Below are positions 13,575 to 33,895 of a stretch of 44,404 bases of DNA, one piece after another (position 1 is the stretch's first letter; each line of letters begins with the position of its first letter). Under the pieces are notes generated by a model. The model saw nothing but the letters and a program-made list of their open reading frames with translations. It was not told where the DNA came from and did no database searches. A program made the translations under genes and the position numbers. Origin of the DNA: Eubacterium sp. CAG:180 (GTDB taxonomy: Bacteria > Bacillota > Clostridia > Oscillospirales > CAG-272). The stretch spans positions 1 to 44,404 of the forward strand of contig CAVGEJ010000004.1 in assembly GCA_963628215.1 (NCBI GenBank), given 5' to 3'.

Positions 13575-14855
13575 TTATGCCGGATCGTCCGTCGGTTTGC
13601 GCCGGAACAGTCGCGCTTTCCGCACGTGACGGACAATGGCAACCGCGACGGACGCCACCGCAAGAACCGCGCCGATAAGGATCAAAAGGTAACCCCACAT
13701 GGGCATCCGGAACGCGATGCCGGGAACACAGACCACATACGTCCCTTTCCGGTCGGTCGTTGCCCTGACATATCTCCCCCATCCTTCGCTCTCGAGTTCC
13801 GTCAGAGAACCGTCCTCCTCGATGCGGTATACACTTGCCTTCCTGCGGTCAAACCGATCGTCCGCGCGGAAATACAGCACGAAATCCCCTGCCGCCGTCA
13901 CTTCTTCCCCTTCGCTGTCCAACAATTCCACGGTATAAACCTCGAACCGATCCGCCACCGTTTTCATGCGTTCCGCAACGGTCGCATACCCCGCCGCCGC
14001 GTCGGTCATCCGCCCTGCCAACAGGTAAGTCCCTGTCGGGAGCACGCCGTTCGGATCTTCCGAGCGAACCGCTTCGTTCTCACCCGTTACCGCGTGAATC
14101 ACCAACCGATACTCGGTGAAGGTGTTGTTATCCAAAGATGTCCGGTAGCGTTCGCTTTCGGCGCGGTAGAGAACCGTATAAGTTCCGACCTGCTCCAACG
14201 TCAGCTTTCCGTCCGTAATCTGCTGTTCGACTCCGCCGCAGAAAGCCTGCATTGTAACCGTGCATTTCTCCGCGCCGAGCGTTGCCGTTGCCGCAGGAAG
14301 CCGAAGTACCGTTCCCTGCCGCAGGGTATATTCCGCCGCGTCGGTGGCAATCACGGGGACAAACTCCGCAGGGCGTTCCCCGAGGTCGCGCACACTGTCC
14401 GAGAGTTTCTCCGCCGCCGAAAGATCCAGCGTTCCCGCAAACTCGGTCTGCCGCCCCATCGCGTTGATATACGCCGCGAAGGAAAGGCTTCCGCGCAGAA
14501 CCTCCGCGCCGACGGTGTAGGTTTCATAGGTCCACGACTCCTCTTTCTCCGTCGTTTTTCCGACCTCGGCGTCCCCCGCGACAAGGCGCAGATAACCGAT
14601 TGAGGACGAGAACCCGACGGTCAGATAGTACCGCCCGTTCAGAACCTCCACCGTGGCGGTTGACGTGAAGTTATCCGCGCCCATCCGGATATCGTACCGG
14701 ATCGGGACACGGTAAGTTCCGTCGCCCGAAAAACCGGTTTCCTCCGCCCGCGCGGTCAGAATGCCGGTCGGAAGAAGCCCGAAGCAGAGAACCGCAAGAA
14801 GTATTGCCGCGCAAAAGCGGGAAATCCGACCGATTCCGTTCTTTCTGTTCACCAT
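13575..14855 (-). CDS. secreted, C-terminally membrane-anchored surface protein of unknown function
   Basis: 426 aa. N-terminal signal peptide ending TARA/EE, and a C-terminal TM helix (WGYLLILIGAVLAVASVAVAIV) followed by a basic tail. The start overlaps the upstream stop by 7 nt (ATGGTGA). Any NEAT-like or Ig-like fold is speculative. Confidence 0.75.
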   Translation of the reverse strand: MVNRKNGIGRISRFCAAILLAVLCFGLLPTGILTARAEETGFSGDGTYRVPIRYDIRMGADNFTSTATVEVLNGRYYLTVGFSSSIGYLRLVAGDAEVGKTTEKEESWTYETYTVGAEVLRGSLSFAAYINAMGRQTEFAGTLDLSAAEKLSDSVRDLGERPAEFVPVIATDAAEYTLRQGTVLRLPAATATLGAEKCTVTMQAFCGGVEQQITDGKLTLEQVGTYTVLYRAESERYRTSLDNNTFTEYRLVIHAVTGENEAVRSEDPNGVLPTGTYLLAGRMTDAAAGYATVAERMKTVADRFEVYTVELLDSEGEEVTAAGDFVLYFRADDRFDRRKASVYRIEEDGSLTELESEGWGRYVRATTDRKGTYVVCVPGIAFRMPMWGYLLILIGAVLAVASVAVAIVRHVRKARLFRRKPTDDPA

Positions 14856-18766: not shown

Positions 18767-18881
18767 ATTCTCCTCCGGTATCTCCGCTTCCGCGCTCCCC
18801 CCGAACGGTCGGAGGGAGCGCTTTTGGGTAAGGCGTCACCATCGGAATTGCGTGGTGATGCCTTAAATCGGTATTGGTTTC

Positions 18882-21800
18882 TCAGTTGAGCGACGAGTTG
18901 GTAAACCGTTCGATGTCGGCGAGTTTTTCCTTCATGACCTCGTTCGACATTCCCTGCCACCAACCGTCCTCAAAGATCGTAGAATCCTGCGAGGTGATCT
19001 GATCTTTTGTTGTCCACGAATCGAAAGCGTCCGCGTTGTCAAAGTATGCAAACCGTTCGATGCCCATATCGGTGAACGCATTCTTATGAATCTTCTTGAC
19101 GATGCCGAGGGTGATTTCGTTGAAGGACTGGTTCTTGACGCCGTAGGTCACATAGTACGCCGAGCCTTCCATCATCTCATAGCGCATGACCGCCGTGCCC
19201 GCAACAGGCCAGTTGCTTTCGTAATAGCGCATGGTTCTGCCGATGGCAAACGTATCGCTTCCGCCCGCGTAGCCGCCTGCGGTTGCAAGGTACTGCACGT
19301 CGTAAACCGTAACGTCCACTTCGCCGCCCGCACTGTTCTTCTTCACAACCTCACTGCCCGTATACTTCACAATGCCGTAGTTGTTTCCCGCTCCGCCGCA
19401 GACGAAGAAGAAATCGCCAACCTGCGCATTCGGGTAAACATAGTCCTTCGACCACGGGTAAGCAAGCAGGTATCTGCCCTCTTCGCCCGCAACCGGCGTA
19501 AACATCTTGATGGCGCGGGTCTTGAACGCGTAGGGTGCAATGCTCTTGAGGTTTGCAAGCGGAATTGTGACGTTCAGTTCGCCGCTTGCAACGTAGAGGT
19601 TCTGCACGGGGTCGAGATAGCAACCCGCGTCGCCGAACGCATACGACCCGATCTCTTCCAGTCCGCCCTGCTCAATGACAACCAGGCGCAGGTTTGCGGT
19701 GTTGCGGAAAGCGTTCTCTCCGATCACCTTCACGCTGTTCTTGATGTAGACCTGCGCGATGTTCTCGTTGTCCATGAACGCGCCTGCGGCAATCGCGGTA
19801 ATCTTCTTGCCGTCGATCGCGGCGGGAATGTTGACGATGTAAAGCCCTTCCTCGCCCGGCACTTGCTGTGCGTTTGCGGAATCAAAGCCCGTCACGGTCA
19901 GAGTACCGTCCGCATTCTCCGAGGTGGTAATGCCGTACTTGTCGTACTCCAGTCTGAGCGTGATGTAAAGGTTTCTCGTCACGGTCGCGTTCGGGTCGAA
20001 GTCCCCGTTCAGTTCGCTCAGTTCGGTAATGACATAGGCGTAAGGAAGATCGTTCAGCCCAAGCACCTCTGCAATCGTCTCTTTCGTCAGCTTCTCACCG
20101 CTCTTGAGCAGTTTCTTGGAAGAATAGGACTTCGAGAAGCCCGTCATCTCGCTTGAAGCAAAGATGTTGACGGTAACCGCCGTGCCTTCGGCAATCTCCT
20201 TGGTGAACACCACGGGGTAGCCGTTCATTTCGGAATAAAGGAGCGTGTCGTAGTTACTGGTGGAATAAACAAAGTTGAAATTCTTGAATTTGGTCGGCAT
20301 TTTGGTGTTGTCGATCTCCACTCTGCCGATTCCCTCGCCCAGTGTGGACACCACCGAGAACCAATCCGCGCCCGCATAGTCTCTCGTCGGGTCGGCAATC
20401 ACATTCGGGCGATAGAGCAGACCACCGCGGGATTTCGTTGCGCCGTTATAGCCCGGAACGATCGAGACCGACGCATTGTAGGACGCCTGCGTGACGGTTG
20501 CCGGAAGCTTCAGCACGTCAGCCTCGATTGCCGAATACAGACCGACCTGAATTTTCGTCACGCCGCTCGGAATCTCCAGCACACCGTCTTTGACATTCTT
20601 CTGATAGTCCGAAACCAACACCTTATCCGTGCCGTTGACAAGATAGATGCGGCTGTCACTTTCGTCGCGCGTGAACACCGATTTTTCACCGAAGGTCACA
20701 TTCTCCGGCAGTCTCGCAATATTCGTCACGGAATCGGGAATTGCGATCTCGAAGTCATATGCCTTGTCGCTCTTGGGTTTGAGCACATCCGCCGTTGTCT
20801 CATATTCCGCCCAGAAGCAATCCAGCACCGACACCAGTTTGGAGGGCAGCGTAACCGACTTCAGTCTCGGCATGACGTTGAAGGAACGCTCCAGAACCTT
20901 CAGCGTGGAGGGCAACTGCACCGTTTCCAGTTCGCTTGCCTCGCTCCCGTTGAACTTGGCAATCCACTCGATGCCTTCGTCAAAGAGGAAGACCTTTGCG
21001 CCGCTGAAGTTCGAACCGAGCGTTTCCGCCATCACACCGGTTACATTTCCGTAGGTCACCTGAATGCCGTCCTCGGTCTCTTCCTGATCGACAACCGCGT
21101 TCGAGGAAAGAATCGACACGACCGGGAAATCCTTGATTCCGCTGACCGAGGAATCCACAAAATCAAGGTAGTAGTTGCCGCTGTCGCTGTCGCGGGAGAA
21201 GCCGAGTCCGGGCGTTTGCCAACGGACGCGGATCGTCATATTGCCCGAAACCGCTTTGTCGAAATTCACGCTGTTTCCGTCCGCCACATAGGAGACCGAA
21301 ACGGGATCCATATAGGATTGCAGGATGTACTTGCTCTCAAAGCTGACGTCGTTGCCGTCGCTGTCCTTCGCAACCGCCGCCCCGGGTGCGGTAAGCTTCT
21401 CCCCAACGGGAATATCGGCTTCGTACAGGGCGTTCTGATACCCGTCGCCGAAGGTGACGTGCGCGAGATATCTGCCGAACAGTTCGGTTACATCCGCGCC
21501 GACTTCGTATTTCACCGCATAGCTTGCGTCGGTATACCAACCGTCAAACGACAGGTTGTATTTCAGCGCGTCCGCAGTGTACTGCCATGTCAGCGCGTCC
21601 AGTTCCTCGAGCTTCTTCTGCTCGCTCTCGCCGCCGTTGACAGACACCTGTACCTGCGCGGGAACAAAATATGCGTACACCGTCACCGCGCCCGTCAAGC
21701 CGTCATTGCGGAACGGGGTCGGCGTTTCCGAGTAGTCGTACCAATCACGGAACACATAGTTCGTCTTGGTCGGATCTTGCGGCAGGGTGACCTTGCCGTC

Positions 21801-21968
21801 CTTGGCGTCAACTTGGGCGTATTGCTCCCAAGCGCCGTTTTCGTTCTGCACCATAAAGGTAACAGACGCGTTTTCCTTGCTCCCGCACGATATGAGCGTG
21901 CAGGCACTGACAAGCAGCATCGCGAGGCAGAGCAGAATGCCACGGACGCTCTTTCTGATTGTTGTCAT
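18882..21968 (-). CDS. giant lipoprotein with Listeria-Bacteroides repeats and BspA-type leucine-rich repeats
   Basis: 1028 aa. Lipobox TLISC-G. NYVFRDWYDY and LSFDGWYTDASY repeats. LRR_5-like segments (for example ITAIAAGAFMDNENIAQVYIKNSVKVIGENAFRNTANLRLVVI). AGGAGG upstream. Confidence 0.8.
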   Translation of the reverse strand: MTTIRKSVRGILLCLAMLLVSACTLISCGSKENASVTFMVQNENGAWEQYAQVDAKDGKVTLPQDPTKTNYVFRDWYDYSETPTPFRNDGLTGAVTVYAYFVPAQVQVSVNGGESEQKKLEELDALTWQYTADALKYNLSFDGWYTDASYAVKYEVGADVTELFGRYLAHVTFGDGYQNALYEADIPVGEKLTAPGAAVAKDSDGNDVSFESKYILQSYMDPVSVSYVADGNSVNFDKAVSGNMTIRVRWQTPGLGFSRDSDSGNYYLDFVDSSVSGIKDFPVVSILSSNAVVDQEETEDGIQVTYGNVTGVMAETLGSNFSGAKVFLFDEGIEWIAKFNGSEASELETVQLPSTLKVLERSFNVMPRLKSVTLPSKLVSVLDCFWAEYETTADVLKPKSDKAYDFEIAIPDSVTNIARLPENVTFGEKSVFTRDESDSRIYLVNGTDKVLVSDYQKNVKDGVLEIPSGVTKIQVGLYSAIEADVLKLPATVTQASYNASVSIVPGYNGATKSRGGLLYRPNVIADPTRDYAGADWFSVVSTLGEGIGRVEIDNTKMPTKFKNFNFVYSTSNYDTLLYSEMNGYPVVFTKEIAEGTAVTVNIFASSEMTGFSKSYSSKKLLKSGEKLTKETIAEVLGLNDLPYAYVITELSELNGDFDPNATVTRNLYITLRLEYDKYGITTSENADGTLTVTGFDSANAQQVPGEEGLYIVNIPAAIDGKKITAIAAGAFMDNENIAQVYIKNSVKVIGENAFRNTANLRLVVIEQGGLEEIGSYAFGDAGCYLDPVQNLYVASGELNVTIPLANLKSIAPYAFKTRAIKMFTPVAGEEGRYLLAYPWSKDYVYPNAQVGDFFFVCGGAGNNYGIVKYTGSEVVKKNSAGGEVDVTVYDVQYLATAGGYAGGSDTFAIGRTMRYYESNWPVAGTAVMRYEMMEGSAYYVTYGVKNQSFNEITLGIVKKIHKNAFTDMGIERFAYFDNADAFDSWTTKDQITSQDSTIFEDGWWQGMSNEVMKEKLADIERFTNSSLN

Positions 21969-22046
21969 GTTTACATGACCTCCTTTGAATATATGTCAAC
22001 CCGCTTGCGCGGTGTTGCATCAGGAATTGGCTGCTGTCCGACTCCG

Positions 22047-24314
22047 TCAGATGTCATAGCCCGCAAGAATTGCGGACGGCGTTTTGGTCAGCACGAAGAG
22101 ATACGGAATCAGCGAGACAGCGACCATCAGAAGGCTGCCTGCCGCCGCTCCGACCGCCGCAAGCCCGAGGAAGGGCGTCACCGACAGGTTCAGAATTCCG
22201 TACCGCACCGCGATCAGCGCCACGGTGACCGCCGAGAACAGCAGGAACGGCAGAACGCTGCCCGCAACCGCACGAACGGTCTCGCGGAACAACAGATTGC
22301 TCCGGTTTACGCCGATGGCGCGCAGAACGCCGTATTCCTTGCTGTTGCGGATGCTTGCGGATTTCTCGATAAAGAAGTAGATGAGATACAAGAGAACGAT
22401 TACGACCGCATAGAGTACCAAACCGCCCGACGCGTCGCGCCGCGCTTCCGCATCCTGTCTGTCATAAATCCCCTGCACGTCCAAAGTGGTAATTCCCTTT
22501 TCGGCAAGCAGATTCTTCAGCGCCCCAAATTGCTCCGCGTCCTTGGCGGAGACGGCAAAGCATGCCTGCGAGTCGGTTGCAAGTCCGGTTTCCCCCGGTT
22601 TGAGGTAAACGAAGATGTTGGAAAGCACGTTTTTGTTTACGATAATCCGCAGATCGGTTGTCATCACGTCGCGCGTCAGGCGGAACTGTCTGACATACAT
22701 CGGCTTGCTTCCGACAATCGAGATTGCGGTGGTCAGTTCCTTGAGCCGGCTGTTTGCGGCAGTGATGCGCGCGTCTGCGTCGGCGGTATCGGTCATCATT
22801 TTATATAGCGAATTCCGGCTGATTTCCAGAATCACGCGGTTATCCTCCAAACCCTCGCTGTCATCCGCCAGACAGATTTCGGTGGAAAAGCGATTGGAGG
22901 AAAAATTCTGTTCGAGGAAGATCTCGCCCGGGTCGGAAAGCCGCGCGGACGCATACACGCCGAGGTGATTCACATAGTCAATCCGATTGAACCAGACCGC
23001 GCTTTCCTCGCCCTCCACAATGCCGCATACGGGATACGTACCGTTCAGCGTAACCATCAGCATCGCAGAATCGCGCTTCAGTTCTTCCAAACGCAAGCCC
23101 GCTTTGATCTTTTCGGCAAGCCCGCGCGAGATCAGCACCTCGCCGCGCTCGGGAAGCCTGCCCCAAAGCCCCGCAGGCTCGCCGTCGGTCGGAATCGACT
23201 TCGGCGCAAACCCGAGTTCCAGTTCCGAGAGCGCCGCAACCTCGCCGTAGGAAAAGCTTCCCGTTTCAAAGGCAGTCTCGAAAAAGTCAATCGAATCATA
23301 TCGGGACGGATCGGTCACGCGGAGTTCGGAATAGCTGTTCAGCCCTGTGAACACCGTGCTTTCGGAAAGTGTTTTGTGCTCGGTCGTCACATTCAGCGCC
23401 TCGTTCACGGAGAAGGCAAAGAAGCAGAGCACCACCGCCATGGCAAGAATGAACACCTGCTTGAACGCGTCCCCCGCGCCAAATCCCTCGCCGTCGTCGC
23501 GTTTCCGCCGCAGAATCGACCGCAACCGAAACAGTCTGCCGTTGCGCTTTGCCGTGCTTCCGCGAAAATCGGAAAGCGCGCTGTGCCCGCTTTCGCTGTG
23601 CGGCGCGCGGTCATAAGTTCCGGGCGCGAGGTCGCTGTCGTCAATTTCCGCGTCCTCCACCAACTCGCCGTCCACAATCTTGATGTGGCTGTCGGCGTAG
23701 GTTCGGATCAGCGACACCTCATGCGTTACAACCACCACCAACCGCGTTTTGGAAATCTCCTTGAGAATATCCATGACCTTCACGGTGTTCTCCGCGTCCA
23801 GATTTCCCGTCGGCTCGTCCGCCAGAAGGACGTCGCCGCCCTTTACAATCGCCCTTGCAATCGCAACCCGCTGTTGCTGACCGCCTGAGAGCGCGTCGCC
23901 GCGCTTGTTGCGGAAACGCTCCATGTCAACCAGTTTCAGCGCCTCGTCGGTGCGGCGGGCAATCTCGTTTTCATCGCGGAAGCCCGCAATCAGCATCTGG
24001 TTGCGCAGAATCTGCGCGATGGTGTAGCCCTTTTCGAGATAGTAATTCTGAAAAACGAATCCGATTTTGGCGTTTCGGATGCGGTCGGTTCTGCCGCTTG
24101 TGCAAACGCCGTCAATATAGACCTTGCCGCTGTCCGCGCGCTCCAGACCGCCGATGATGTTGAGCAGAGTCGTTTTTCCGCTCCCGCTCTTTCCGTAAAT
24201 GCAGACCAACCCGCAGTCGGGAAGCGTAAAGGACACGCCCTTGAGCACCCGATTCGCATTTCGGGAATGCCGCCGGAAGGTCTTTGTGATGTTTTCCACA
24301 CGGATAACTGCCAT
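22047..24314 (-). CDS. MacB-type ABC protein: N-terminal ATPase fused to an FtsX-family permease with a large extracytoplasmic domain
   Basis: 755 aa. Walker A GKSGSGKTT, Q-loop VFQN, signature LSGGQQQR, Walker B LLADEPTGNLD, H-loop VVTHE. These are followed by TM1, about 330 aa of hydrophilic insert, and three C-terminal TM helices. Confidence 0.85.
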   Translation of the reverse strand: MAVIRVENITKTFRRHSRNANRVLKGVSFTLPDCGLVCIYGKSGSGKTTLLNIIGGLERADSGKVYIDGVCTSGRTDRIRNAKIGFVFQNYYLEKGYTIAQILRNQMLIAGFRDENEIARRTDEALKLVDMERFRNKRGDALSGGQQQRVAIARAIVKGGDVLLADEPTGNLDAENTVKVMDILKEISKTRLVVVVTHEVSLIRTYADSHIKIVDGELVEDAEIDDSDLAPGTYDRAPHSESGHSALSDFRGSTAKRNGRLFRLRSILRRKRDDGEGFGAGDAFKQVFILAMAVVLCFFAFSVNEALNVTTEHKTLSESTVFTGLNSYSELRVTDPSRYDSIDFFETAFETGSFSYGEVAALSELELGFAPKSIPTDGEPAGLWGRLPERGEVLISRGLAEKIKAGLRLEELKRDSAMLMVTLNGTYPVCGIVEGEESAVWFNRIDYVNHLGVYASARLSDPGEIFLEQNFSSNRFSTEICLADDSEGLEDNRVILEISRNSLYKMMTDTADADARITAANSRLKELTTAISIVGSKPMYVRQFRLTRDVMTTDLRIIVNKNVLSNIFVYLKPGETGLATDSQACFAVSAKDAEQFGALKNLLAEKGITTLDVQGIYDRQDAEARRDASGGLVLYAVVIVLLYLIYFFIEKSASIRNSKEYGVLRAIGVNRSNLLFRETVRAVAGSVLPFLLFSAVTVALIAVRYGILNLSVTPFLGLAAVGAAAGSLLMVAVSLIPYLFVLTKTPSAILAGYDI

Positions 24315-24315
24315 A

Positions 24316-26388
24316 TCAGCCCTTTACCCCCCTTCTCAGCGACCGACGGATGCTCTGCCCGCCGATGGTTCGGTTGAACCCGAACGCAACGCATTCCACA
24401 ATCAGAAGCAACATCCCCTCGATGAAGAAATACTGTCCGAGCGGAATGAAAGCAAGTCCGCTCCCCGGAAGCATCGCCGCAATCAGGCTTACAAGCGGCA
24501 ACAGCCCCAAGGTCGGCAGGAAAATCAGCGCCATCTGGACATAGAGCGAACGCGATGACACCTTTCCCGCAATGCCGAGCGTGCGATAGACGGCAAAGTC
24601 GGTCTGGAAAATCTTCACGCTTCTGCCGAAGATGACCGAAATCAGCGCCGCGAACAGCAGGCAGACCGCAATCAGCGCAATATAATATAGCACATTCATC
24701 GTGTAGAGCCCGGCGGCATTCGTCACATAAACCGTGCTTGCCGAAAGCATTCCGATCAACCCGTCGGGAAGCTGCGCAAGCGCCGCCTGCGCCGTTTGTT
24801 CGTCGGGGAAATAGAGCACCGAGCGGCTCGCGCTCTCCCGCTCCCCTTCAAAAATCCTGCTGTAATCCGCCTCGCTCAGCTTTACAATCAGCCGCCCCGA
24901 ACGGGCGTCGTCCTTTTCGGTATCGTCGGTGATCGTGTAGGAACGGTTGGATTGCACTGCAGGAACAGCTTCGTAGCGGGTTGCCTGATAGATATCGGAA
25001 TTGACCAGACGCATCGTCCCTTCCTCCAGAGCGGAATCCGCCTCGTAAGTATAGACGGTTACGCTGTTTTCCCCAAGCCGCATGGAGGTGTTGATGGCGC
25101 GCAGGCGTCCACCGTTTTCCTCTGCATCCGTATGGGAGAGATACAGAAGCACGCGATCGTCCGAAAGCGTTGTCCGCACGTCAATCTCCGTAAGTCCCGC
25201 GCCCGCTTCGGAAAAGACCGAGGCAATCGCAGCCCCGTCCCGCTCGGAGGAGCGCGGAAGCACCAGTACCGCATGTCCCGCTTCGGGATTGTGCACATAG
25301 GGCGCATACAGGCAGGTCACCGTGTAAGCGGAGAGCATTCCGCTTTCCCGCAGAACGTTCACCGTAAATTCCGAAAAAGATTGATCCGAGAGGCAGAATC
25401 CCGCCTTCGTCAGCCCCGCCGCCTCGTCGGTTTCTTCGGCGGTCACGCGACCGCTCTCGCCCGACAGAATCACCTTCCCCGCCACGCCGACGGTATCGAG
25501 CGTTGCACGGATCGGGCGGATCAGCGAAGAACCGAACACCGAAAGCGTGAGGAACAGCGTGACCGCGCAGACCAACAGCGCAAGACTCATCATCAGCGTA
25601 AAGCGCGGACGGCTTTTGTAGTTCAGCGTTCCGATAAAGAAGGTGTCCCGCCATGCCTTGCGACGGCTGACCTTCCCGTCCGGAATCGCGGGACAGGCGC
25701 TTGCCGTCGGCGCTTCCAGAACGCGATCCTCCTGCACAGCGCCGTCGCGGATGGTGATACGCCGCGTGGCGTATGCCTCGAAAAATTCGGGATTATGCGT
25801 GACAACGATCACCAGTTTGTCCTGCGACACGTCCTTCAGCAGTTTCGCAATCTCGCGCGACGCTTTGACATCCAGATTTCCCGTCGGTTCGTCCGCAAGG
25901 ATAATCGGCGCGTCCTTCGCAAGCGCCCGCGCGATCACCGTGCGTTGCTTCTCTCCGCCCGAGAGCCTGCTTCCGCGGCGGTTCATCTGGCGGGTCAGCC
26001 CCACCTTTTCAATCAGTTCCCGCGCCTTTTCGCGGCGAACCGCGCGGTTCTCAAAACGGAGCAGAGCCAACTCCACATTCTCGAGCACGGTCAGATTTTC
26101 GATGATATTGAAGTCCTGAAAAACCGTTGCGATGTATTTCTCGCGGTATTTCTCCCATTCTTCCGCACCGTAATGCGACGTTTCCTCGTCGCAGATGTAC
26201 AGCTCGCCTTCCTCGTAACTGTCGTTCGCGCCGATGACGTTCAGCAGTGTGGATTTTCCGCTCCCGCTCTCGCCTTCAATCGTCACGAATTCATTGGTAT
26301 CGAAATCCAGATTGATTCCGCGGATACCGATGGTCAGAATATCGTTGCTGTCATAAATTTTTCCGATGTTCTTCAGCCGCAGTAGCAA
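24316..26388 (-). CDS. MacB-type ABC protein (paralogue): N-terminal ATPase fused to an FtsX-family permease
   Basis: 690 aa. TTG start with GGAG 8 nt upstream and an in-frame TAA five codons upstream. GESGSGKST, LSGGEKQR, ILADEPTGNLD, VVTHN. Same TM1, large insert and 3-TM layout. One-nt gap to the next gene. Confidence 0.85.
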   Translation of the reverse strand: MLLRLKNIGKIYDSNDILTIGIRGINLDFDTNEFVTIEGESGSGKSTLLNVIGANDSYEEGELYICDEETSHYGAEEWEKYREKYIATVFQDFNIIENLTVLENVELALLRFENRAVRREKARELIEKVGLTRQMNRRGSRLSGGEKQRTVIARALAKDAPIILADEPTGNLDVKASREIAKLLKDVSQDKLVIVVTHNPEFFEAYATRRITIRDGAVQEDRVLEAPTASACPAIPDGKVSRRKAWRDTFFIGTLNYKSRPRFTLMMSLALLVCAVTLFLTLSVFGSSLIRPIRATLDTVGVAGKVILSGESGRVTAEETDEAAGLTKAGFCLSDQSFSEFTVNVLRESGMLSAYTVTCLYAPYVHNPEAGHAVLVLPRSSERDGAAIASVFSEAGAGLTEIDVRTTLSDDRVLLYLSHTDAEENGGRLRAINTSMRLGENSVTVYTYEADSALEEGTMRLVNSDIYQATRYEAVPAVQSNRSYTITDDTEKDDARSGRLIVKLSEADYSRIFEGERESASRSVLYFPDEQTAQAALAQLPDGLIGMLSASTVYVTNAAGLYTMNVLYYIALIAVCLLFAALISVIFGRSVKIFQTDFAVYRTLGIAGKVSSRSLYVQMALIFLPTLGLLPLVSLIAAMLPGSGLAFIPLGQYFFIEGMLLLIVECVAFGFNRTIGGQSIRRSLRRGVKG

Positions 26389-26418: not shown

Positions 26419-26434
26419 GTTAGCCTTGGCTAAC
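26419..26434 (-). promoter_or_regulatory. operator-like palindrome GTTAGCC-TT-GGCTAAC (RBS-proximal site)
   Basis: Arms are perfect 7-bp inverted repeats. The site lies 30 nt upstream of the TTG start. Its 22-nt context is 20/22 identical to 33669-33690. Confidence 0.6.
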
Positions 26435-26493
26435 CAATTGGCTTTGGAATCGGTGAAAGGAAGATTCCCTTCACCGTTTTTACCGCTCATTCG

Positions 26494-26509
26494 GTTAGTC
26501 CAAACTAAC
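26494..26509 (-). promoter_or_regulatory. operator-like palindrome GTTAGT-CCAA-ACTAAC (overlaps the predicted transcription start)
   Basis: Same GTTAG-N6-CTAAC frame, positioned 10-25 nt downstream of the -10 hexamer. Confidence 0.55.
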
Positions 26510-26518
26510 ACACGCCAT

Positions 26519-26547
26519 ATTATAGCATAGCAGACAAGCCTTGTCAA
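26519..26547 (-). promoter_or_regulatory. consensus sigma-70 promoter of the envelope operon
   Basis: On the minus strand: TTGACA (26547-26542), exact 17-nt spacer, TATAAT (26524-26519). Confidence 0.75.
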
Positions 26548-26659
26548 TATTCTTTCCGAAAGTTATCTCGGGCTAATTTTTTCGGGGTGGCGGAAGGGGA
26601 TTCCCGACCTCCTGATTTCGGGCAAAACAGAACCCTTTCCGTTTGATGGGAGAGGATTT

Positions 26660-26953
26660 ATCCCCCCTCATCAGTCGCTTACGCGACAGCTTCCCCCCCA
26701 AGGGGAAGCCTTTTTGCAAGAGTTGCCTCGTCCTTTCAATTGCAAATCAAATACAAAAAGATACAAAATTGATTTTTCGAAAATCGCAACGCTTACAAAG
26801 GCATCCTCTCGGTGGAAATTCTTTTTGCAAAAACTTCTTCACATTTCCAACCAAGCAAACAGAAGAAAAACCTGATTTTTCGGAAATCGCACTGTGTACA
26901 GAAGGCTTCCCCTTGGGGGGAAGCTGTCGCGCAAGCGACTGATGAGGGGGGAT
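26660..26953. repeat. MITE-like element: 50/51-bp terminal inverted repeats around an AT-rich 193-bp core with internal direct repeats
   Basis: The left arm (26660-26710) and the reverse complement of the right arm (26904-26953) differ by one substitution and one C indel. Each arm holds two small hairpins (GTCGC..GCGAC and GCTTCCCC..GGGGAAGC). The core has a direct repeat GATTTTTCGRAAATCGCA (26771-26788, 26874-26891) and a degenerate extra copy of the right-arm sequence near 26800-26820. Confidence 0.7.
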
Positions 26954-27002
26954 CTCCTTGCTCCAACCGCAAATAAATGCTTTTTTTGCATACAAATTTA
27001 GC

Positions 27003-28415
27003 TTATCCCCCGAAAAATGCCCGCACAAGTTCTTTGCCGCCGACCTCCTGCGCCACGCCCGAGCCGATCCGAACCGCAACGTCGCAAAGCGCCTCGGCAC
27101 AGCGGCGGTCATGCGTAACCGTCAGAAGCGTAGTCCCGCGCTCGGTATGAATCCGGTTCAGCACCTCCACCATATCGCAAAGCCCGCGATAATCCTGCCC
27201 GACGGTCGGCTCATCCAGAATCAGAAGTTCGGGCACGGTTGCCGCCACCGCGGCGATGGATACCCGCCGTTTCTGCCCCTCCGAAAGGGACTGCGGATGC
27301 CGCGCGTAGAGTGACCGCACACCGAATGCCTCCGCAATTTCGTCCGCATAATCGTCCGAACCTGCGCCGAAGCGGATTTCCCGTTCCACCGTCGGCATGA
27401 ACAGCTGATAATCGGGATTCTGGTAGACCACGCCGACCCGCCGATACCATTCCCGACTTCCGCGCGTTCCCTGCCCGAGGCGGGAATCCAGAGTCTGGCG
27501 GATTCTGCCGCGCGTCGGTTTCTCCAGTCGCGCAATCAGTCGCAGGAGCGTGGTTTTGCCGCACCCGTTCTCCCCCAACAGAACCGTCCGCGAGCCACGC
27601 GGGATGTCAAACGTCACCCCGTCCAACACCTTGCGGTCACGCACCGAAAACGCAACGTCGGAGAGCGACAGCAGGGGTTCGCCGCCCGCAAACGCGGGAC
27701 AGCCGTCCGGAATCGGCGTTGATTGCTCCCGCAGATATGCCGCAGGATCGGAAACCTCCCGTGCCTGCCGGTTTCCGACATGGAAAACCCGATTCACAAA
27801 CGGCAACACCATGTCCAACCGATGCTCGATGACAACCACGCAGTAACCCGCGTCCGCAAGCGCGCGCAGAGTTGTCATCAGGAGTTCTGCGCCCGCCGTA
27901 TCCAGATTTGCAAGCGGCTCGTCCAGAATCACAATCTTCTGTCCCATTGCGAGCACCGACGCCGTTATCAGCCGCTGTTTCTGCCCGCCCGAAAGGCTGC
28001 GGCACTGCCACGACGGATTCAGCTGCATCAGATCGCAAACGGTTGCAATCTGCTTTTGTATCCGCTCGGGCGGGAAAGCAAGATTTTCACAGCCGAACGC
28101 CAACTCATCCTCAACCGTTTTCTGCAGAATCTGCGCGTCGGCGTTCTGGAGCACCACACCGACGCGGCGGCAGACCTCCCCGACCCGCCTGCCGCGAATG
28201 GGTTCGCCCGCAACCAGTACCTCGCCCGTCACCTCGCCGCCGACAAGCCCCGGCGCAATCCCGCTCATGACCGAAAGCAGGGTGCTTTTCCCCTCGCCCG
28301 AGTGTCCCGCAAGCAGAGTCACCTCTCCGTAGTTCAGAGCAAGGCTGATCCCCTCCAACACCCGCGTTTTTCCGTCATAGGAAAACCCGACATCCTTCAG
28401 TTCAATCGCCTTCAT
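27003..28415 (-). CDS. ECF transporter ATPase, duplicated (EcfA-EcfA' fusion)
   Basis: Start set at ATG 28415 (MKAIELKDVGF), an ATGA overlap with the upstream stop. There are two complete NBDs (GHSGEGKST / LSGGQKQR / ILDEPLANLD, and GENGCGKTT / LSEGQKRR / ILDEPTVGQD). Confidence 0.85.
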   Translation of the reverse strand: MKAIELKDVGFSYDGKTRVLEGISLALNYGEVTLLAGHSGEGKSTLLSVMSGIAPGLVGGEVTGEVLVAGEPIRGRRVGEVCRRVGVVLQNADAQILQKTVEDELAFGCENLAFPPERIQKQIATVCDLMQLNPSWQCRSLSGGQKQRLITASVLAMGQKIVILDEPLANLDTAGAELLMTTLRALADAGYCVVVIEHRLDMVLPFVNRVFHVGNRQAREVSDPAAYLREQSTPIPDGCPAFAGGEPLLSLSDVAFSVRDRKVLDGVTFDIPRGSRTVLLGENGCGKTTLLRLIARLEKPTRGRIRQTLDSRLGQGTRGSREWYRRVGVVYQNPDYQLFMPTVEREIRFGAGSDDYADEIAEAFGVRSLYARHPQSLSEGQKRRVSIAAVAATVPELLILDEPTVGQDYRGLCDMVEVLNRIHTERGTTLLTVTHDRRCAEALCDVAVRIGSGVAQEVGGKELVRAFFGG

Positions 28416-29089
28416 AATACCACCGCAAGGAGTGCGCCGACGGCAATCCCCAGAACGAAGATCACGTCGGACAGACAAACCGTTTCCTTTTTGTAAACCG
28501 TATCGGGAACTTTCTCAAGAGAGAAGCCGCGCGTTTCAACCGACAGCGAGAGCGTATCGGAAATATCAACCAACCGCATGACAAGCGGAACAAGGAAAGC
28601 GCGGTAGAAAATACGCGGATTCAGCGCGCTTCCCGCGCCGCGCGTCCGCATTGCCTCCCGCACCCGCCGGATCTCCGCGCCGAGGACAGGCGGAAAGGAG
28701 GTTGCGATCAGCATTCCGAGCGTCACCCCGCGCGGAACTTTCAGGGTGCGGAGACAACGCGTCATGTCCGCCGCCTCGGTGCTCATTCCGAGCGCCGCCG
28801 CGAGAAGCACCGCGCCGAACCGGTTGACCATCGCCAACGCAGACAGCGAATCGTGACCGTAGGCAAAATAGGCAATCGCGCCGAATGCCCCGCCGAACAG
28901 CGCCAACATCGGCAAAACCCGCAGAACGCCCCGCGCGCCGCCGAACAGGCAGAGCCAGAGGTATGCGCAACCGAGAAAAACGGTGCACCGCAGACTCCGC
29001 GCCGTGCAAAGTCCGAACACGAGGAAAAACAGCCCCGCAAGAAAAACGAAGATGGGATAGACCCGCCGCTTCCGAGAGAAAAAGCTCAT
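28412..29089 (-). CDS. ECF transporter T component (EcfT/CbiQ family)
   Basis: Start set at ATG 29089 (MSFFSRKRRVYPIF), an ATGA overlap with the upstream stop. Polytopic, with two coupling-helix-like motifs (EAMRTRGA and SVETRGF). Confidence 0.75.
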   Translation of the reverse strand: MSFFSRKRRVYPIFVFLAGLFFLVFGLCTARSLRCTVFLGCAYLWLCLFGGARGVLRVLPMLALFGGAFGAIAYFAYGHDSLSALAMVNRFGAVLLAAALGMSTEAADMTRCLRTLKVPRGVTLGMLIATSFPPVLGAEIRRVREAMRTRGAGSALNPRIFYRAFLVPLVMRLVDISDTLSLSVETRGFSLEKVPDTVYKKETVCLSDVIFVLGIAVGALLAVVL

Positions 29090-29778
29090 GACCGCAGAAC
29101 TCCCGCCTTTTTCATCTCCCGCGAGACCAACATTCCAACGCACGATCCCGCAAAGCAAAGCGCCACAACCGCCGCCGAGATGCCGATCACCACCCACGGG
29201 TCGGTACTGCCGAGGAAGATGGAGGTTGCCGCCTTCTCATTGCCCGTTACCTGATAGAACACCCGATAATAAAGGAACATCAGCGGAAGCGTCATGGGCA
29301 GGTAAACCGTTCCCGCAAACACGCATGCCCAATCGTTCCCGTAGCCGTGAAACAGCAGGAGAACCAGCGCCTCCGCAATCAATGCGCATACCGTGATAAG
29401 CGCCATCGGCGGAAACATGAAAATCAGAAACACCGAAATGAACACCGCCTGCAAAAGAAGCGCGCCCGGCTTCCGCACCTTCATCAGCCCGATTACGGGA
29501 AAGACCGAAAACTGAAGTCCAAGCCCCAGTTGGACAATGCCGAACAGCGGAACGTTGACAAGCAGCGGCATAACCGCGCCCGTTACCAACGTACAGGCGG
29601 TTATCACCGCAAGAAATACGATATCCCGGACGCTGTATTTCCGAATCGCATGCGGGCGCGCCGCGTGATCCGCTTTTTTCTCCTGCGCAGGGGCGGGGGC
29701 AGCCCCGGTTGCCTCTTCCGCGTTTTCCATCAATGCCGAAGCCGCCTCGGCGGCTTTGCGTTCTTCGTTCCCGTTCAT
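29086..29778 (-). CDS. MptD-family putative ECF S component (TIGR02185 Trep_Strep-like membrane protein)
   Basis: 230 aa. About 45 aa of hydrophilic N-terminal extension, then a strongly hydrophobic polytopic core and a basic C-terminal motif (REMKKAG). Sits directly upstream of EcfT/EcfA. Family assignment is by recollection. Confidence 0.55.
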   Translation of the reverse strand: MNGNEERKAAEAASALMENAEEATGAAPAPAQEKKADHAARPHAIRKYSVRDIVFLAVITACTLVTGAVMPLLVNVPLFGIVQLGLGLQFSVFPVIGLMKVRKPGALLLQAVFISVFLIFMFPPMALITVCALIAEALVLLLFHGYGNDWACVFAGTVYLPMTLPLMFLYYRVFYQVTGNEKAATSIFLGSTDPWVVIGISAAVVALCFAGSCVGMLVSREMKKAGVLRS

Positions 29779-31478
29779 GCCTTTACCTCCGTCATGTGCC
29801 CGTTTTCCACACGGTAAATCCGATCGGCAATCGCCATGGTCGACTCCCTGTGCGAAACCAGAATGATACTCTTCCTGCGCTTCTGCTCTTTCAGCGCGCC
29901 GAGAATGATGCCCTCGTTGATGCTGTCGACGTTGCTGGTCGGCTCGTCAAGCAGGATCAGCTCGCTTCCCCGCAAGAATGCGCGGGCAAGACCGATGCGC
30001 TGCTTTTCCCCCGCCGAAAGGTTGTCCCCCAGTGCGCCGACCCGCGTTGCGTAACCGTTCGGGAGCGACAGGATGAAGTCGTGCACCGACGCCATCCGGC
30101 ACGCCGCCTCGAGTTCCTCGCGCGTGGCGTCCGGCTTTGCAATGCGCAGATTGTCCTCAATCGTCTCGTCAAACAGATAGGTGCTCTGCGAAACCATGGT
30201 CACGTTCTCCAGAAGAGACGCGGTGTTGATACGGTCGATGTCGGTATCGTTATAAGCGATTCTGCCGTCGTCCTTTTCCCAGAACCGCAGAAGCAGCTTC
30301 AGAAGCGTGGATTTGCCGCAACCCGACGCGCCGACAATTCCGATGATTTCGCCCTTCTCCGCATGCATGCGGATGTCCTCCAGAACGCGCCGCTCCCCGT
30401 CGTAGGAGAAGGAGAGATCCGACACGTCCAGCGTTTTGTAATCGAAATCCGTCCCGTCGGTCACATCCTCCACCGCCGGCTTTTCCGCAAGCAGTTTCAG
30501 CACTCTGTCGCCGCTCGCCAACGTCTGCGTCAGATTTCCCGGGAGCGACCCGACCGCGATAACAGGACCGAACGACGAGAACACCGTCACCATGCCGATT
30601 ATCATGCGACCGATTCCCAACTCGCCCCGCGACACAAGCAGAATGCCGACCGCCAACGTCAGAAGCACGAACAGCGAAACCGACAACTCAATCGCCGCGC
30701 CCGCACGGGTGATGTTATGTTTCATCTTTTTCGTCTCGCACAGCATGGAATCCGAGCGGCGGTTGACCTCGGTCTCCCGCTCCGCCCCCGCATTGTTGAG
30801 CACGATATCGCGGATGCCCCGGATGCTGTCAAGGAAGTATGCCGAAAAGGAGGAAAACTCCGCGCGATACCGCACGCCGCTCTCTTTGAGCCTGCCCGAG
30901 GAAATCAGCGGCACGGCAATGCCGATGAACAGATATCCGACCAACGCCACAAGCGCAAGATACCACGAAGAAACCGACCCGACGAACAGGAACACCGCAA
31001 GCGACACCAGAACCGCAATGCAGATCGGCGACACGGTGTGCGCGTAGAACACCTCAAGCGTTTCGATATCCGAGGTAATCATCGCAATGATACCGCCCTT
31101 TTGCCGGCTTTCCAGTTTTGCGGGGCAGAGTCTGCGGAGCGCGCCGAAGATTTTATCCCGCAGAACCGCAAGAAGGCGGAACGCGATATAATGGTTGCTG
31201 TACTGCTCAAAATAGCGCAGAATGCCGCGCAGAACGCCGCACCCGACGGCAATGCCGATGATCGCGCCGTAGGAAAGCGCAATCGGCTCGCCCAATGCTT
31301 TCGCAACGCCGACCGCACCCGAAACCGTGACGCCCATTGCGCAGACGAATCCGAGGCTTCCGTTCAGTACCGCCAGAAGCATGATGTAGGAAAGACTGCC
31401 CAACAGCAAAATCAGGCTCGCCATGATTTTTGCGCCGTTCTCGCGAAGCGGCTTCCGCTGATTCGACCCGGTTCTCAT
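29775..31478 (-). CDS. ABC transporter, exporter-fold half-transporter (TMD-NBD, CydC-like)
   Basis: 567 aa. Six-TM N-terminal half, then GASGCGKST, LSAGEKQR, LLDEPTSNVD. ATGA overlaps at both ends. Confidence 0.85.
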   Translation of the reverse strand: MRTGSNQRKPLRENGAKIMASLILLLGSLSYIMLLAVLNGSLGFVCAMGVTVSGAVGVAKALGEPIALSYGAIIGIAVGCGVLRGILRYFEQYSNHYIAFRLLAVLRDKIFGALRRLCPAKLESRQKGGIIAMITSDIETLEVFYAHTVSPICIAVLVSLAVFLFVGSVSSWYLALVALVGYLFIGIAVPLISSGRLKESGVRYRAEFSSFSAYFLDSIRGIRDIVLNNAGAERETEVNRRSDSMLCETKKMKHNITRAGAAIELSVSLFVLLTLAVGILLVSRGELGIGRMIIGMVTVFSSFGPVIAVGSLPGNLTQTLASGDRVLKLLAEKPAVEDVTDGTDFDYKTLDVSDLSFSYDGERRVLEDIRMHAEKGEIIGIVGASGCGKSTLLKLLLRFWEKDDGRIAYNDTDIDRINTASLLENVTMVSQSTYLFDETIEDNLRIAKPDATREELEAACRMASVHDFILSLPNGYATRVGALGDNLSAGEKQRIGLARAFLRGSELILLDEPTSNVDSINEGIILGALKEQKRRKSIILVSHRESTMAIADRIYRVENGHMTEVKA

Positions 31479-33202
31479 GCAACCACCTCCCCGAAATTTC
31501 CTTCCAGAGTTTTCTGCGCCGTGTAAAGCCGCGCGTAGCCGCCCTGTTTTTCCATCAGTTCCGCATGCGTGCCGCTCTCCCGCACTTCGCCGTTTTCCAT
31601 GTAATAGATTCTGTCTGCGGGCACAACGTTTTCCAAGCGATGCGAAATCACCACCACGCTCTTTTTCCCGGCAAGCTTCCGGACGTTCCGCATGATGATG
31701 GCTTCGCTTTCCACGTCAATGTTGCTGGTCGCTTCGTCAAACACATAGATGTCTTTTCCCGCCACCAGTGCAACCGCCAACGCCAACCGCTGTTTCTGAC
31801 CGCCCGAGATATTGCTTGCGTCCTCGGTGATAACCTTGTCAAGTCCGCCGTTTTCCTCCACAAAGCGCCGCAGGTTGACCTGCTCCAATGCCGAAAAGAT
31901 CTCATCGTCGGTTACATCCCGCTTTGCCAACCGGAAATTGTCGCGCACGCTCTCGTTGAAAATGTAGGTATTGTAGCTGACCGCCCCGAGGCGCGTATAC
32001 AGACCCTCGCGCGACAGCGCCGACAGCGGCTTGCCGCCAACCGTGACCTCGCCCGAGGCGGGACGGTTTGCGCCGATCAGCAGATTCACCGCGGTGGATT
32101 TTCCGCATCCCGAAGCGCCCACGATTGCCGTCATGCCGACTGCGGGAAAGTCCATGCTCACGTGCCGCAGAACTTCCCGCTTGCCGTCGTAAGAGAACGT
32201 CACGTCGCAGAGGCGCATTTCCGTATTTTCAGCCGTTTCCGTCCCCCATTCGGGATCGGGCGTGTTCAGAAGCGTGATAATCTTCTTTCCCGCGCTCGCG
32301 CCGTTCATGGCAACATGGAACGCCGAGCCGAACGCCCGAAGCGGCAGAAAGAACTCCACCGCCACAAGGCACAGGAAGAGCGCCGCAATGGGGTTCAGTC
32401 CGCGGAACGCCGCGCCGCTGACCGCCAACGCGATTCCCGCGCCCGCGCCGCCGTAGGCAACCAGATCCATGATGGTCGTACTGGCAAGCTGCATCACCAA
32501 CACCTTCATCGTGATCTCGCGGAATTCCTCGGCGCTCTCGTTCAGCTTCTCGTGCTGCGCCGCGTCCGCACGGAAGATTTTCAGTTCCTTCAGCCCCTGC
32601 ACACTGTCAAGGAAGGTATCGCCCATCGAGGTATACTTGCCCCAGTACTTGGCGAAGATTTTCTTTGCGTACTTGCTGACCGCAACAATTGAGATCGGAA
32701 TCAGCGGCACGCAGGCAAGCAGCAGGAGCGCGGTACGCCAGTCGATTCCCACGCAGATAACGAACAGCAGCACGGGCGCTAACATGGCAAAGAAGAACTG
32801 CGGCAGATAGGAGGAATAGTACAGATCCAACTGCTCCACGCCCTCCACGGACACCTGCGTCAGCCCTGCCATGCTCATGCCGTCCGCGTTCTTCACGCCG
32901 AGGGTCACGAGTTTGTTATAAACCCGCTCGCGCAAATCCTTCTTGACCGATCTGCCGAGCCGATCCTTGACGTCTCCCGTCAGCCGTGTGCAAAGATACC
33001 GCACTCCAACGGCAACCGCCGCGCCGATCAGCGGCGCGAGGTATCGCTCCGTATCTGCCCCCTGCGTCAGAAGCCATACCGCATAGCAGACGCACCCCGT
33101 GACCGATACGTTTGCAATCAGCCCCAACGCCTGCAATGCCACCGCAATGAAAATATATTTTCGGTTTGACCCGATCAGGCGGAACAACGCCTTGTCAATC
33201 AT
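31475..33202 (-). CDS. ABC transporter, exporter-fold half-transporter (TMD-NBD, CydD-like)
   Basis: 575 aa. N-terminal TMD, then GASGCGKST, ISGGQKQR, VFDEATSNID. Confidence 0.85.
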   Translation of the reverse strand: MIDKALFRLIGSNRKYIFIAVALQALGLIANVSVTGCVCYAVWLLTQGADTERYLAPLIGAAVAVGVRYLCTRLTGDVKDRLGRSVKKDLRERVYNKLVTLGVKNADGMSMAGLTQVSVEGVEQLDLYYSSYLPQFFFAMLAPVLLFVICVGIDWRTALLLLACVPLIPISIVAVSKYAKKIFAKYWGKYTSMGDTFLDSVQGLKELKIFRADAAQHEKLNESAEEFREITMKVLVMQLASTTIMDLVAYGGAGAGIALAVSGAAFRGLNPIAALFLCLVAVEFFLPLRAFGSAFHVAMNGASAGKKIITLLNTPDPEWGTETAENTEMRLCDVTFSYDGKREVLRHVSMDFPAVGMTAIVGASGCGKSTAVNLLIGANRPASGEVTVGGKPLSALSREGLYTRLGAVSYNTYIFNESVRDNFRLAKRDVTDDEIFSALEQVNLRRFVEENGGLDKVITEDASNISGGQKQRLALAVALVAGKDIYVFDEATSNIDVESEAIIMRNVRKLAGKKSVVVISHRLENVVPADRIYYMENGEVRESGTHAELMEKQGGYARLYTAQKTLEGNFGEVVA

Positions 33203-33259
33203 CTTTCCGTTCCTCTCTTTCCTGTTGCTTTTTGTTCTTTCGCGGAATGCAGAATGCGT

Positions 33260-33637
33260 TCATGACGCGCCTCTGCCCATTCCCGAACGGATGAAATTCG
33301 CCACCCCGTTCCGCGTGGCGTCCGAAAACGCACAGCTGACATTCAGCGCGTCCTCATACGCCTGCTCGGGAGGAGTTCCGCAATGCACCGACAAATGCGT
33401 GGAGATAAAGCCGATGATCGTCATGTATTCCCCGAGAATCCGCAAACCTTCTTCGGTTAATGTGACAAGACGCTCGGTCTTTTCGATGTACCCCTTGTCC
33501 CGCAGGCGCTCCACGGCGTTGTAAGCGCTGACCTTGGACACGCCCAGCCTTGCGGCAATGTCTTTTTGTTTCACCGCCGCTCCGCTCTCGGCAAGCCTGT
33601 TCGCCGCAATCAGATACCGCAGTTCCGATGAACTCAT
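33260..33637 (-). CDS. DtxR/MntR-family-like winged-helix transcriptional regulator
   Basis: Start set at ATG 33637, with GAGGTG 6 nt upstream (track start 33646 is a GTG). 125 aa. ELRYLIAANRL...VKQKDIAARLGVSKVSAYNAVERLRDKGYIEK...VTLTEEG aligns by eye with the MntR/DtxR N-terminal DNA-binding domain. First gene of the operon. Confidence 0.65.
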   Translation of the reverse strand: MSSSELRYLIAANRLAESGAAVKQKDIAARLGVSKVSAYNAVERLRDKGYIEKTERLVTLTEEGLRILGEYMTIIGFISTHLSVHCGTPPEQAYEDALNVSCAFSDATRNGVANFIRSGMGRGAS

Positions 33638-33668
33638 ATTCATCACCTCACAAATAAATTCGCAATTA

Positions 33669-33684
33669 GTTAGCCTTAGCTAAC
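33669..33684 (-). promoter_or_regulatory. operator-like palindrome GTTAGC-CTTA-GCTAAC (RBS-proximal site)
   Basis: Lies 31 nt upstream of the regulator ATG. Its 22-nt context is 20/22 identical to 26419-26440. Confidence 0.6.
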
Positions 33685-33725
33685 CGATTGGTAAAAAGAA
33701 TGAATCGATCTTTTTCGGCATTTTA

Positions 33726-33741
33726 GTTAGCCAAGGCTAAC
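33726..33741 (-). promoter_or_regulatory. operator-like palindrome GTTAGCC-AA-GGCTAAC
   Basis: Perfect 7-bp arms, located in the leader about 40 nt downstream of the -10 hexamer. Confidence 0.55.
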
Positions 33742-33780
33742 CGATGCCCGAAAAAAATCGGTTCGGGTCGAACCATCTGT

Positions 33781-33809
33781 ATTATACACAGTCGGGAAGA
33801 ATTTGTCAA
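33781..33809 (-). promoter_or_regulatory. consensus sigma-70 promoter of the regulator/ABC/ECF operon
   Basis: On the minus strand: TTGACA (33809-33804), 17-nt spacer, TATAAT (33786-33781). Confidence 0.75.
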
Positions 33810-33895
33810 GCAAAAGTTAGCGACAGACTAAAAAGTTTTCCGTTTGTTCATTTTTGAAACGAACGCGGAAAGCACGATATTTCTGCCGGAAAACC

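Follow-up and report, generated by a model that had tools for sequence, protein, structure and literature searches.

The question raised by this locus is whether two neighbouring operons are controlled together, and by what kind of protein. The locus lies on contig CAVGEJ010000004.1 of Eubacterium sp. CAG:180, and the window analysed is the whole stretch of 44,404 nt at positions 1 to 44,404. Operon A (14849..26388) has four genes, which encode two fused ATP-binding cassette (ABC) proteins of MacB type and two giant lipoproteins. Operon B (27003..33637) has six genes, which encode a regulator, two ABC half-transporters, and the S, T and A1A2 components of an energy-coupling factor (ECF) transporter. 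Both leaders are read on the minus strand. An earlier note on this DNA had proposed that a near-identical module in the two leaders joins the operons into one putative regulon. By sequence comparison this link is well supported, since the same conserved operator stands in both leaders and in those of relatives. It is likely that the palindromes in question are operators of the DtxR/IdeR type, at which a metal-loaded, dimeric repressor of the DtxR family would shut off both operons together.

The shared element is the palindrome GTTAG-N6-CTAAC. A scan of the window with one mismatch allowed found four matches, all in the two leaders and every one exact. The chance expectation is 0.24, and four copies were reached in none of 100 shuffles. 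Each leader has two sites. In operon A these are A1 (GTTAGTTTGGACTAAC, 26494..26509) and, closer to the gene, A2 (GTTAGCCAAGGCTAAC in the minus-strand reading, 26419..26434). In operon B they are B1 (GTTAGCCTTGGCTAAC, 33726..33741), which is the exact reverse complement of A2, and the proximal B2 (GTTAGCTAAGGCTAAC, 33669..33684). All four lie downstream of perfect TTGACA-17-TATAAT promoters, with 12 of 12 matches each: that of operon A at 26519..26547 (TTGACA 26547-42, TATAAT 26524-19) and that of operon B at 33781..33809 (TTGACA 33809-04, TATAAT 33786-81), the latter invariant in relatives. A1 begins 9 nt past the -10 box, at about +4 to +19, while B1 is found at about +34 to +49 and B2 at about +91. 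The earlier note had described both promoters and a second site nearer the promoter in each operon, and had noticed no full palindrome elsewhere in the window; all three points are borne out.

The two proximal sites extend to a pair of 22-mers (26440-26419 and 33690-33669, minus strand) that on re-reading are 20/22 identical, as had been claimed. The CAATTG flank of A2 (26435..26440) belongs to an extended palindrome with the consensus TTGGTTAGC-N4-GCTAACCAA, of which a CAATYG flank is part. Site A2 ends at 26419, 30 nt before the TTG start codon at 26388, and site B2 ends at 33669, 31 nt before the ATG at 33637. The TTG start is supported by AAGGAG-N8-TTGCTG, which is kept in relatives. The earlier note measured these gaps correctly and saw meaning in their equality. 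Among relatives, the gap from the proximal site to the start varies from about 13 to 41 nt for the regulator gene (more in loci L015 and L017) and from 36 to 45 nt for macB1. Because the gap is not conserved, the equal distance in the window is coincidental.

Evidence for the operators as a conserved feature is provided by related genomes. A profile search with the regulator gave 26 genome loci with identities of 55-93%, mostly from gut metagenome-assembled genomes (MAGs) labelled Clostridia or Christensenellales-like, together with three Mollicutes-like ones. Motif counts were taken over the window and 25 genome loci, together 359 kb. This sequence holds 61 exact sites, where about 0.4 are expected, and 8 sites with one mismatch, where about 12 are expected. 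The motif is thus all-or-none, and all ten core positions must be under strong selection. With the single exception of L023, each locus that includes the relevant upstream sequence has exact sites ahead of the regulator gene, in most cases a pair spaced by 54-66 bp. Exact sites also precede macB1 in every locus extending that far (L005, L007, L017 and L022), and additional ABC operons in relatives are likewise preceded by exact sites. A1 has the same placement in L005, L007 and L017, and an equivalent of A2 is conserved in L005, L007, L022 and L097.

A palindrome in a transcribed leader may act as DNA or as RNA. The alternative offered by the earlier note was a hairpin, GGUUAGCC..GGCUAACC, formed in both leader transcripts. 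All four sites of the window are indeed transcribed, each can form a stem of 5-6 bp, and in L025-L027 a U-run follows directly after the first site. The variation of the sites argues against such a hairpin. Their ten core bases are invariant, so that the five core pairs never vary and no compensatory change is seen in 61 sites. The variable positions have no excess of pairing either: positions 6 and 11 are paired in 34 sites, compared with 31.8 expected from independent preferences (Fisher p=0.45), and the RNAalifold covariation term for the palindrome is -0.04. Related sites are also found upstream of -35 boxes, where they are not transcribed, and sites occur in either orientation, also upstream of divergent genes. 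Orientation is irrelevant, A2 and B1 being exact reverse complements of each other. Rfam, searched with the whole window at the gathering threshold and with both leaders at an E-value threshold, gave no relevant family, only a ZTP riboswitch elsewhere and a chance miRNA match. The leader alignment across relatives, which the earlier note had suggested for separating covariation from conserved half-sites, thus gave strictly conserved half-sites and no covariation. Judged by this variation, the palindrome is a protein-binding DNA site, and the RNA hairpin is very improbable. Still less probable is a chance match or dispersed repeat without a regulatory role. A common repeat unrelated to promoters was among the outcomes that the earlier note had named as fatal to its proposal; the sites are restricted to intergenic promoter or leader regions, and their flanking sequences are otherwise unrelated.

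The geometry of the site points to a particular class of protein. In IdeR, one subunit binds each CCTAA repeat, a single dimer recognises TTAGGNNNNCCTAA, and Gln43 contacts the first C of CCTAA (PMC8464063). A one-dimer IdeR/DtxR site consists of inverted pentamers with a 4-bp spacer. All 61 sites, together with 213 from a wider metagenome scan, contain TTAG-N6-CTAA, that is, TTAGx-N4-xCTAA, and have this arrangement. Their placement is also of the DtxR type, the neighbours being feoB, ABC exporter-fold pairs, ECF modules and DtxR genes. The assignment of the four palindromes to the DtxR/IdeR type of DNA site is supported by these sequence features; they would represent a new variant of the iron box with the core TTAGC-N4-GCTAA.

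The metagenome scan, made with TTGGTTAGCNNNNGCTAACCAA, gave at least 120 loci (L028-L147), in which the 213 exact sites are spread over 736 kb. The commonest neighbour among the matches listed is a DUF3793 gene (20 loci), followed by ABC exporter-fold pairs (19), AraC (14), FeoB (7) and Trep_Strep (5); LysR, AhpC and others also occur. Judged by their families, the neighbour genes have an iron-acquisition flavour. Site pairs among the matches listed are exactly 34 bp apart in 18 cases and 149 bp apart in 17, and the 149-bp pairs sit between divergent AraC and ABC-pair genes. The regulator of operon B is present in just 3-4 of these loci. A canonical small DtxR, with SKPSVSR in its helix, is present in 10, and in five of the ten there are sites 100-139 nt upstream of its own start. 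The motif is not private to the operon B regulator, and it is widespread in uncultured gut and rumen bacteria.

In the proposed mechanism, a dimeric DtxR-family repressor carrying a metal, most likely Fe2+, would bind TTGGTTAGC-N4-GCTAACCAA sites with the core TTAGC-N4-GCTAA, one dimer to each. The bound repressor would turn off the two neighbouring operons jointly, as members of one metal-acquisition regulon. Iron is the probable effector because of the regulon content. At the MacB-type promoter, A1 covers the transcription start, and repression could proceed by classical occlusion of initiation. At the regulator promoter, initiation cannot be blocked from operators at about +34 and +91; a repressor bound there would have to impede elongation, acting as a roadblock to the polymerase. 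A conserved hairpin and T-run before each operator would probably aid this roadblock, a weak terminator being made efficient by the bound protein; the elements stand in a fixed succession (hairpin, T-run, operator), which suggests as much. We infer, rather than observe, which protein binds and with which metal, that the effect is repression and not activation, and what part hairpin and T-run play.

Two proteins may be considered as the binder. The first is the product of the first gene of operon B (33260-33637), a regulator of 125 amino acid residues (aa). Its N-terminal winged helix matches Pfam Fe_dep_repress (PF01325) with 32.3 bits, compared with a cut-off of 26. Its AlphaFold model has a pLDDT (predicted local distance difference test score) of 91, and all top Foldseek matches of this model in the PDB are SSO2273, DR2539, MntR, DtxR and IdeR, with a TM score of about 0.7 over 111-121 columns. 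A DtxR/MntR fold is therefore supported by both the sequence family and the predicted structure. The residues H81, H85, C86, D96 and C102 are invariant in its family and D106 nearly so; given this atypical Cys/His set, haem, another metal or a redox cofactor are open candidates for what it senses.

The second is a canonical small DtxR paralogue of 120 aa, which has both Fe_dep_repress and Fe_dep_repr_C domains and the helix SKPSVSR, and is 27% identical to the regulator of the window. It is found in L006-L008 and L012-L015 (e.g. L014 8258-8620). In these seven genome loci it lies directly upstream of the regulator promoter, ending 13-50 nt before it, and is the final gene of an ABC-ABC operon with a GTTAG-N6-CTAAC site of its own; a TetR gene lies further upstream.

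Several findings weigh against metal-dependent repression of the DtxR type at these sites. The fifth base of the half-site is C in 46 of the 61 sites and T in 11, where the IdeR consensus has G (TTAGG/CCTAA), and TTAGG-N4-CCTAA does not occur in the 736 kb. The 19-bp iron box of four repeats, TTAGGTTAGSCTAACCTAA, which takes two dimers, is not found either, GTTAG-S-CTAAC having no match in the same 736 kb. Operators at +34 and +91 are in an unusual location for repression of this type. In the 125-aa regulator, Pfam did not detect Fe_dep_repr_C, and the MntR metal ligands are absent, MntR H77 aligning with the invariant I75. For these last two reasons its effector may be something other than iron or manganese.

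The two candidates are roughly equally likely as binder, and both may bind. According to the earlier note, the 125-aa protein autoregulates its operon and also represses the MacB/lipoprotein operon. In its full form, with this protein as sole binder of GTTAG-N6-CTAAC, the proposal would make the pair a local two-operon system. Of that proposal, the fold has been upheld, and the protein's being the binder is not established. The gene does always stand directly after the sites, it encodes a DtxR fold, and in our own alignment its recognition-helix residues S34/V36/S37/N40 resemble S37/P39/T40/Q43 of IdeR. However, the motif is mostly found without it: in the metagenome set, selected by the motif, the genes downstream of the sites are feoB, other ABC systems and canonical DtxR genes, the last seemingly autoregulated. 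The sole element private to its promoter is a variant with a spacer of seven bases, TTTAG-N7-CTAAC, not the N6 site. Taken as the exclusive binder, the 125-aa protein is a rather doubtful choice. Alternately, the canonical paralogue, encoded elsewhere, may be a global iron repressor acting at N6 sites, with the 125-aa protein binding, for example, the N7 variant or having another role. Most motif loci are in keeping with this division, as are the N6 sites upstream of canonical DtxR genes, the position of the paralogue beside the regulator promoter in seven relatives, and the confinement of the N7 variant to promoters of the 125-aa regulator. The geometry and base-contact logic of the IdeR work (PMC8464063) also favour it. 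The paralogue has Arg at the position of IdeR Gln43, and Arg may be a better match than Asn for the G of GCTAA; this argument about helix specificity, from Gln43 to Arg or Asn, is an extrapolation from that single paper. On the other side, the 44-kb window lacks a canonical DtxR gene, 17 of the 25 genome loci have none at a distance of up to 10 kb, and MacB promoters have imperfect N6 sites upstream rather than N7 sites. A canonical repressor with such a division of labour is the somewhat better supported of the two, at a little less than even chances.

The imperfect site of the window's own MacB-type promoter is ATTAGCCCGAGATAAC (26562..26577), which has two mismatches and lies 14 nt upstream of the -35 box; comparable imperfect sites are found in L005, L007 and L017. 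The N7 variant of the window, TTTAGTCTGTCGCTAAC (33816..33832), ends 6 nt upstream of the -35 box of operon B. In orthologous leaders it ends 6-7 nt upstream, its spacer is one base longer than that of the N6 site, and its first base is never G. TTTAG-N7-CTAAC is present at all 23 + 2 regulator promoters found (in L002-L027, and at L101 4448 and L043 339) and nowhere else in the 736 kb / 1.1 Mb examined. DNA looping between the N7 site and B1 was considered; the two are separated by 88.5-93.5 bp (102.5 bp in one locus), a spacing without clear phasing.

The leaders share a further architecture. Orthologous regulator leaders have a common order of N7 variant, promoter, short hairpin from about +1, a run of 5-8 T and the first operator. 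The T-run is exactly 8 nt from the first operator in most loci, and the -10 box is 38-42 nt from it in all loci except one. In the window, hairpin 1 (33759-33775) and its T7 run (33751-33757) occupy 33751..33775, at the constant position, and a second T-run (33693..33697) ends 8 nt before B2. Stems of hairpin 1 are just 5-9 bp, in most relatives 2-5 nt separate the stem from the start of the T-run, and the scan calls the structure of the window terminator-like. A longer stem, TTTCGGGCAT / ATGCCGAAA (33713..33753), would enclose B1 in the transcript, and stems of different sequence are found in L005, L007, L017 and L018. In operon A, a hairpin CGGTGAAGG-gaatctt-CCTTTCACCG (26451..26476, -16.6 kcal/mol) has its 3' end 16 nt upstream of A2, and hairpins of other sequence occupy the same position in L005, L007, L017 and L022. 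When the best upstream hairpin is taken for each of the 61 sites, its end falls 16-19 nt ahead of GTTAG at 30 of them, compared with 4 on the mirrored side; these include non-homologous hairpins ahead of the proximal MacB operator. The T-run was considered as a component of the operator itself and rejected, since it accompanies only 10 of 184 sites in the general set and is absent from MacB leaders.

Hairpin 1 covaries. RNAalifold on the MAFFT leader alignment found the invariant palindrome only; MAFFT mis-registers hairpin 1, and a small covariance model was therefore built. It missed the window, L002, L009, L020 and L022, and gave three off-target matches. In the resulting alignment, which is model-fitted and slightly contaminated, the hairpin is 94.7% paired and double changes occur in 5 of 7 pairs. 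The covariation score is 0.585, compared with 0.265 in shuffles (none of 500 reached it) and at most 0.155 with the partners slid.

These features permit a more elaborate model, in which the regulator leader is a composite switch with two inputs. The first would be roadblock-assisted attenuation: a repressor at +34 (and +91), 8 nt past the U-run that follows the covarying hairpin, would release a polymerase held there. The second would be the N7 variant, perhaps a private site of the 125-aa paralogue, whose Cys and His residues might sense haem, a metal chelate or the redox state. Such a switch is considered unlikely. Simple joint repression by a DtxR-family protein, with a roadblock at the regulator promoter, is the preferred reading.

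The closest known relative of the site is the one-dimer IdeR site TTAGGNNNNCCTAA of Saccharopolyspora (PMC8464063). Both have inverted TTAGx pentamers with a 4-bp spacer, lie at metal-uptake promoters, and have a protein of DtxR fold encoded alongside. Unlike the Saccharopolyspora site, the sites described here have the fifth base swapped (TTAGC/GCTAA) and never form the 19-bp two-dimer box. They occur in uncultured, Clostridia-like bacteria of gut and rumen, not in Actinobacteria, and pairs are often 34, about 57 or 149 bp apart.

Another comparison is offered by the sia operon of Streptococcus pyogenes, in which an ABC system (siaD, siaE) and an ECF system (siaFGH) are under the DtxR-family repressor MtsR (PMC6593403). 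Operon B resembles it in gene families and order, with two ABC half-transporters followed by ECF S, T and A components, and in its probable co-regulation with surface proteins bearing leucine-rich repeats (LRR), which are Shr and HupY in S. pyogenes. It differs in the operator sequence, in having no NEAT proteins, and in a Trep_Strep match just below the Pfam cut-off.

The 125-aa regulator itself is similar to two-domain proteins of the MntR type, such as MntR of B. subtilis and E. coli, DR2539 of D. radiodurans and SSO2273 of Sulfolobus. These are about 125-140 aa long and consist of a winged helix-turn-helix and a helical dimerisation domain without SH3, with a TM score of about 0.7 to the regulator. 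The regulator differs in that the MntR metal ligands are not kept and its own invariant Cys/His/Asp set is found instead.

Roadblock repression within transcribed regions is known for CodY, CcpA and LacI, and eukaryotic Pol I is terminated at a T-rich element by the roadblock proteins Reb1 and TTF-I. The regulator leader is like these systems in that its operator stands within transcribed sequence, just downstream of a T-rich stretch and a hairpin; here the likeness is one of sequence. A literature search found no bacterial precedent for the fixed module of hairpin, T-run and operator. Within its coverage, which was incomplete and took in papers but no regulon database (RegPrecise, for instance), it found no report of this motif in Clostridia either. 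GTTAG repeats are also present, at a different spacing, in the operator of S. aureus MepR, a protein of a different family.

If the assignment is correct, TTGGTTAGC-N4-GCTAACCAA would be a usable operator consensus for a regulon that responds to metal in abundant gut and rumen Firmicutes, for the most part uncultured, including Christensenellales-like and Mollicutes-like MAGs. The regulon would join candidate genes for iron or haem acquisition: feoB, exporter-fold ABC pairs, Trep_Strep ECF systems, MacB-type pumps with giant LRR lipoproteins, DUF3793 and AraC. The sites would also be a natural instance of the one-dimer DtxR site, a type that studies of IdeR brought up only recently, and the conserved module of hairpin, T-run and operator could offer a novel means of tightening a roadblock repressor.

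The two ABC proteins of operon A (24316-26388 and 22047-24314) are fusions of an ABC ATPase with four transmembrane (TM) segments in a MacB-like topology: nucleotide-binding domain, one TM, a loop of about 285 aa and three TM. Pfam recognised the ATPase domain alone in this pair (22047-26388), with no match to FtsX or MacB_PCD; the extracytoplasmic loops of the pair, on the minus strand, measure about 285-330 aa. The two giant lipoproteins have lipoprotein signal peptides; the gene at 18882-21968 has LRR_5 and Flg_new matches and that at 14849-18766 has Flg_new. Together these genes span 14849-21968 on the minus strand, and the proteins are 1028 and 1305 aa long with lipoboxes VSAC and LAAC. 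BspA-type LRR occur in one of them, and Listeria-Bacteroides repeats in both. A giant lipoprotein also has a weak NCBIfam match to the haem-binding adhesin HupY (E=9e-4), which covers the LRR only and is no evidence of function. A minus-strand promoter or terminator was sought in the internal gaps of operon A and none was found.

In operon B, the regulator gene is followed by genes for CydD-like (31475-33202) and CydC-like (29775-31478) ABC half-transporters. The Trep_Strep-like S component (29086-29778) had no match in NCBIfam. The T component (28412-29197) has an uncertain start; its longest open reading frame runs 112 nt into the S-component gene, which makes a true start further downstream probable. 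The fused A1A2 ATPase is encoded at 27003-28478. In many relatives (L003, L005, L012, L017, L018, L021, L022 and L024-L027; e.g. L005 1074-1490), a Cys-rich gene of the YgbA_NO family (PF11756, E=5e-39) lies between the regulator and the CydD-like gene. It is not in the window.

Both operons are surrounded by genes of housekeeping function, namely fhs, metG, an EF-G-like gene and a pur operon that has a ZTP riboswitch. This ZMP/ZTP riboswitch, at 336-436 on the plus strand, scores 49 bits against a gathering score of 39 and precedes the pur operon, whose content is purC, purF, purM, purN, IMP cyclohydrolase, purH-like, purD, FGAM synthase and fhs. In relatives, extra operator sites are found upstream of an ATC_hydrolase-family gene and a transglutaminase-like gene (L020 8753-8768, 9032-9796; L012 3680-3695), which are possible regulon members.

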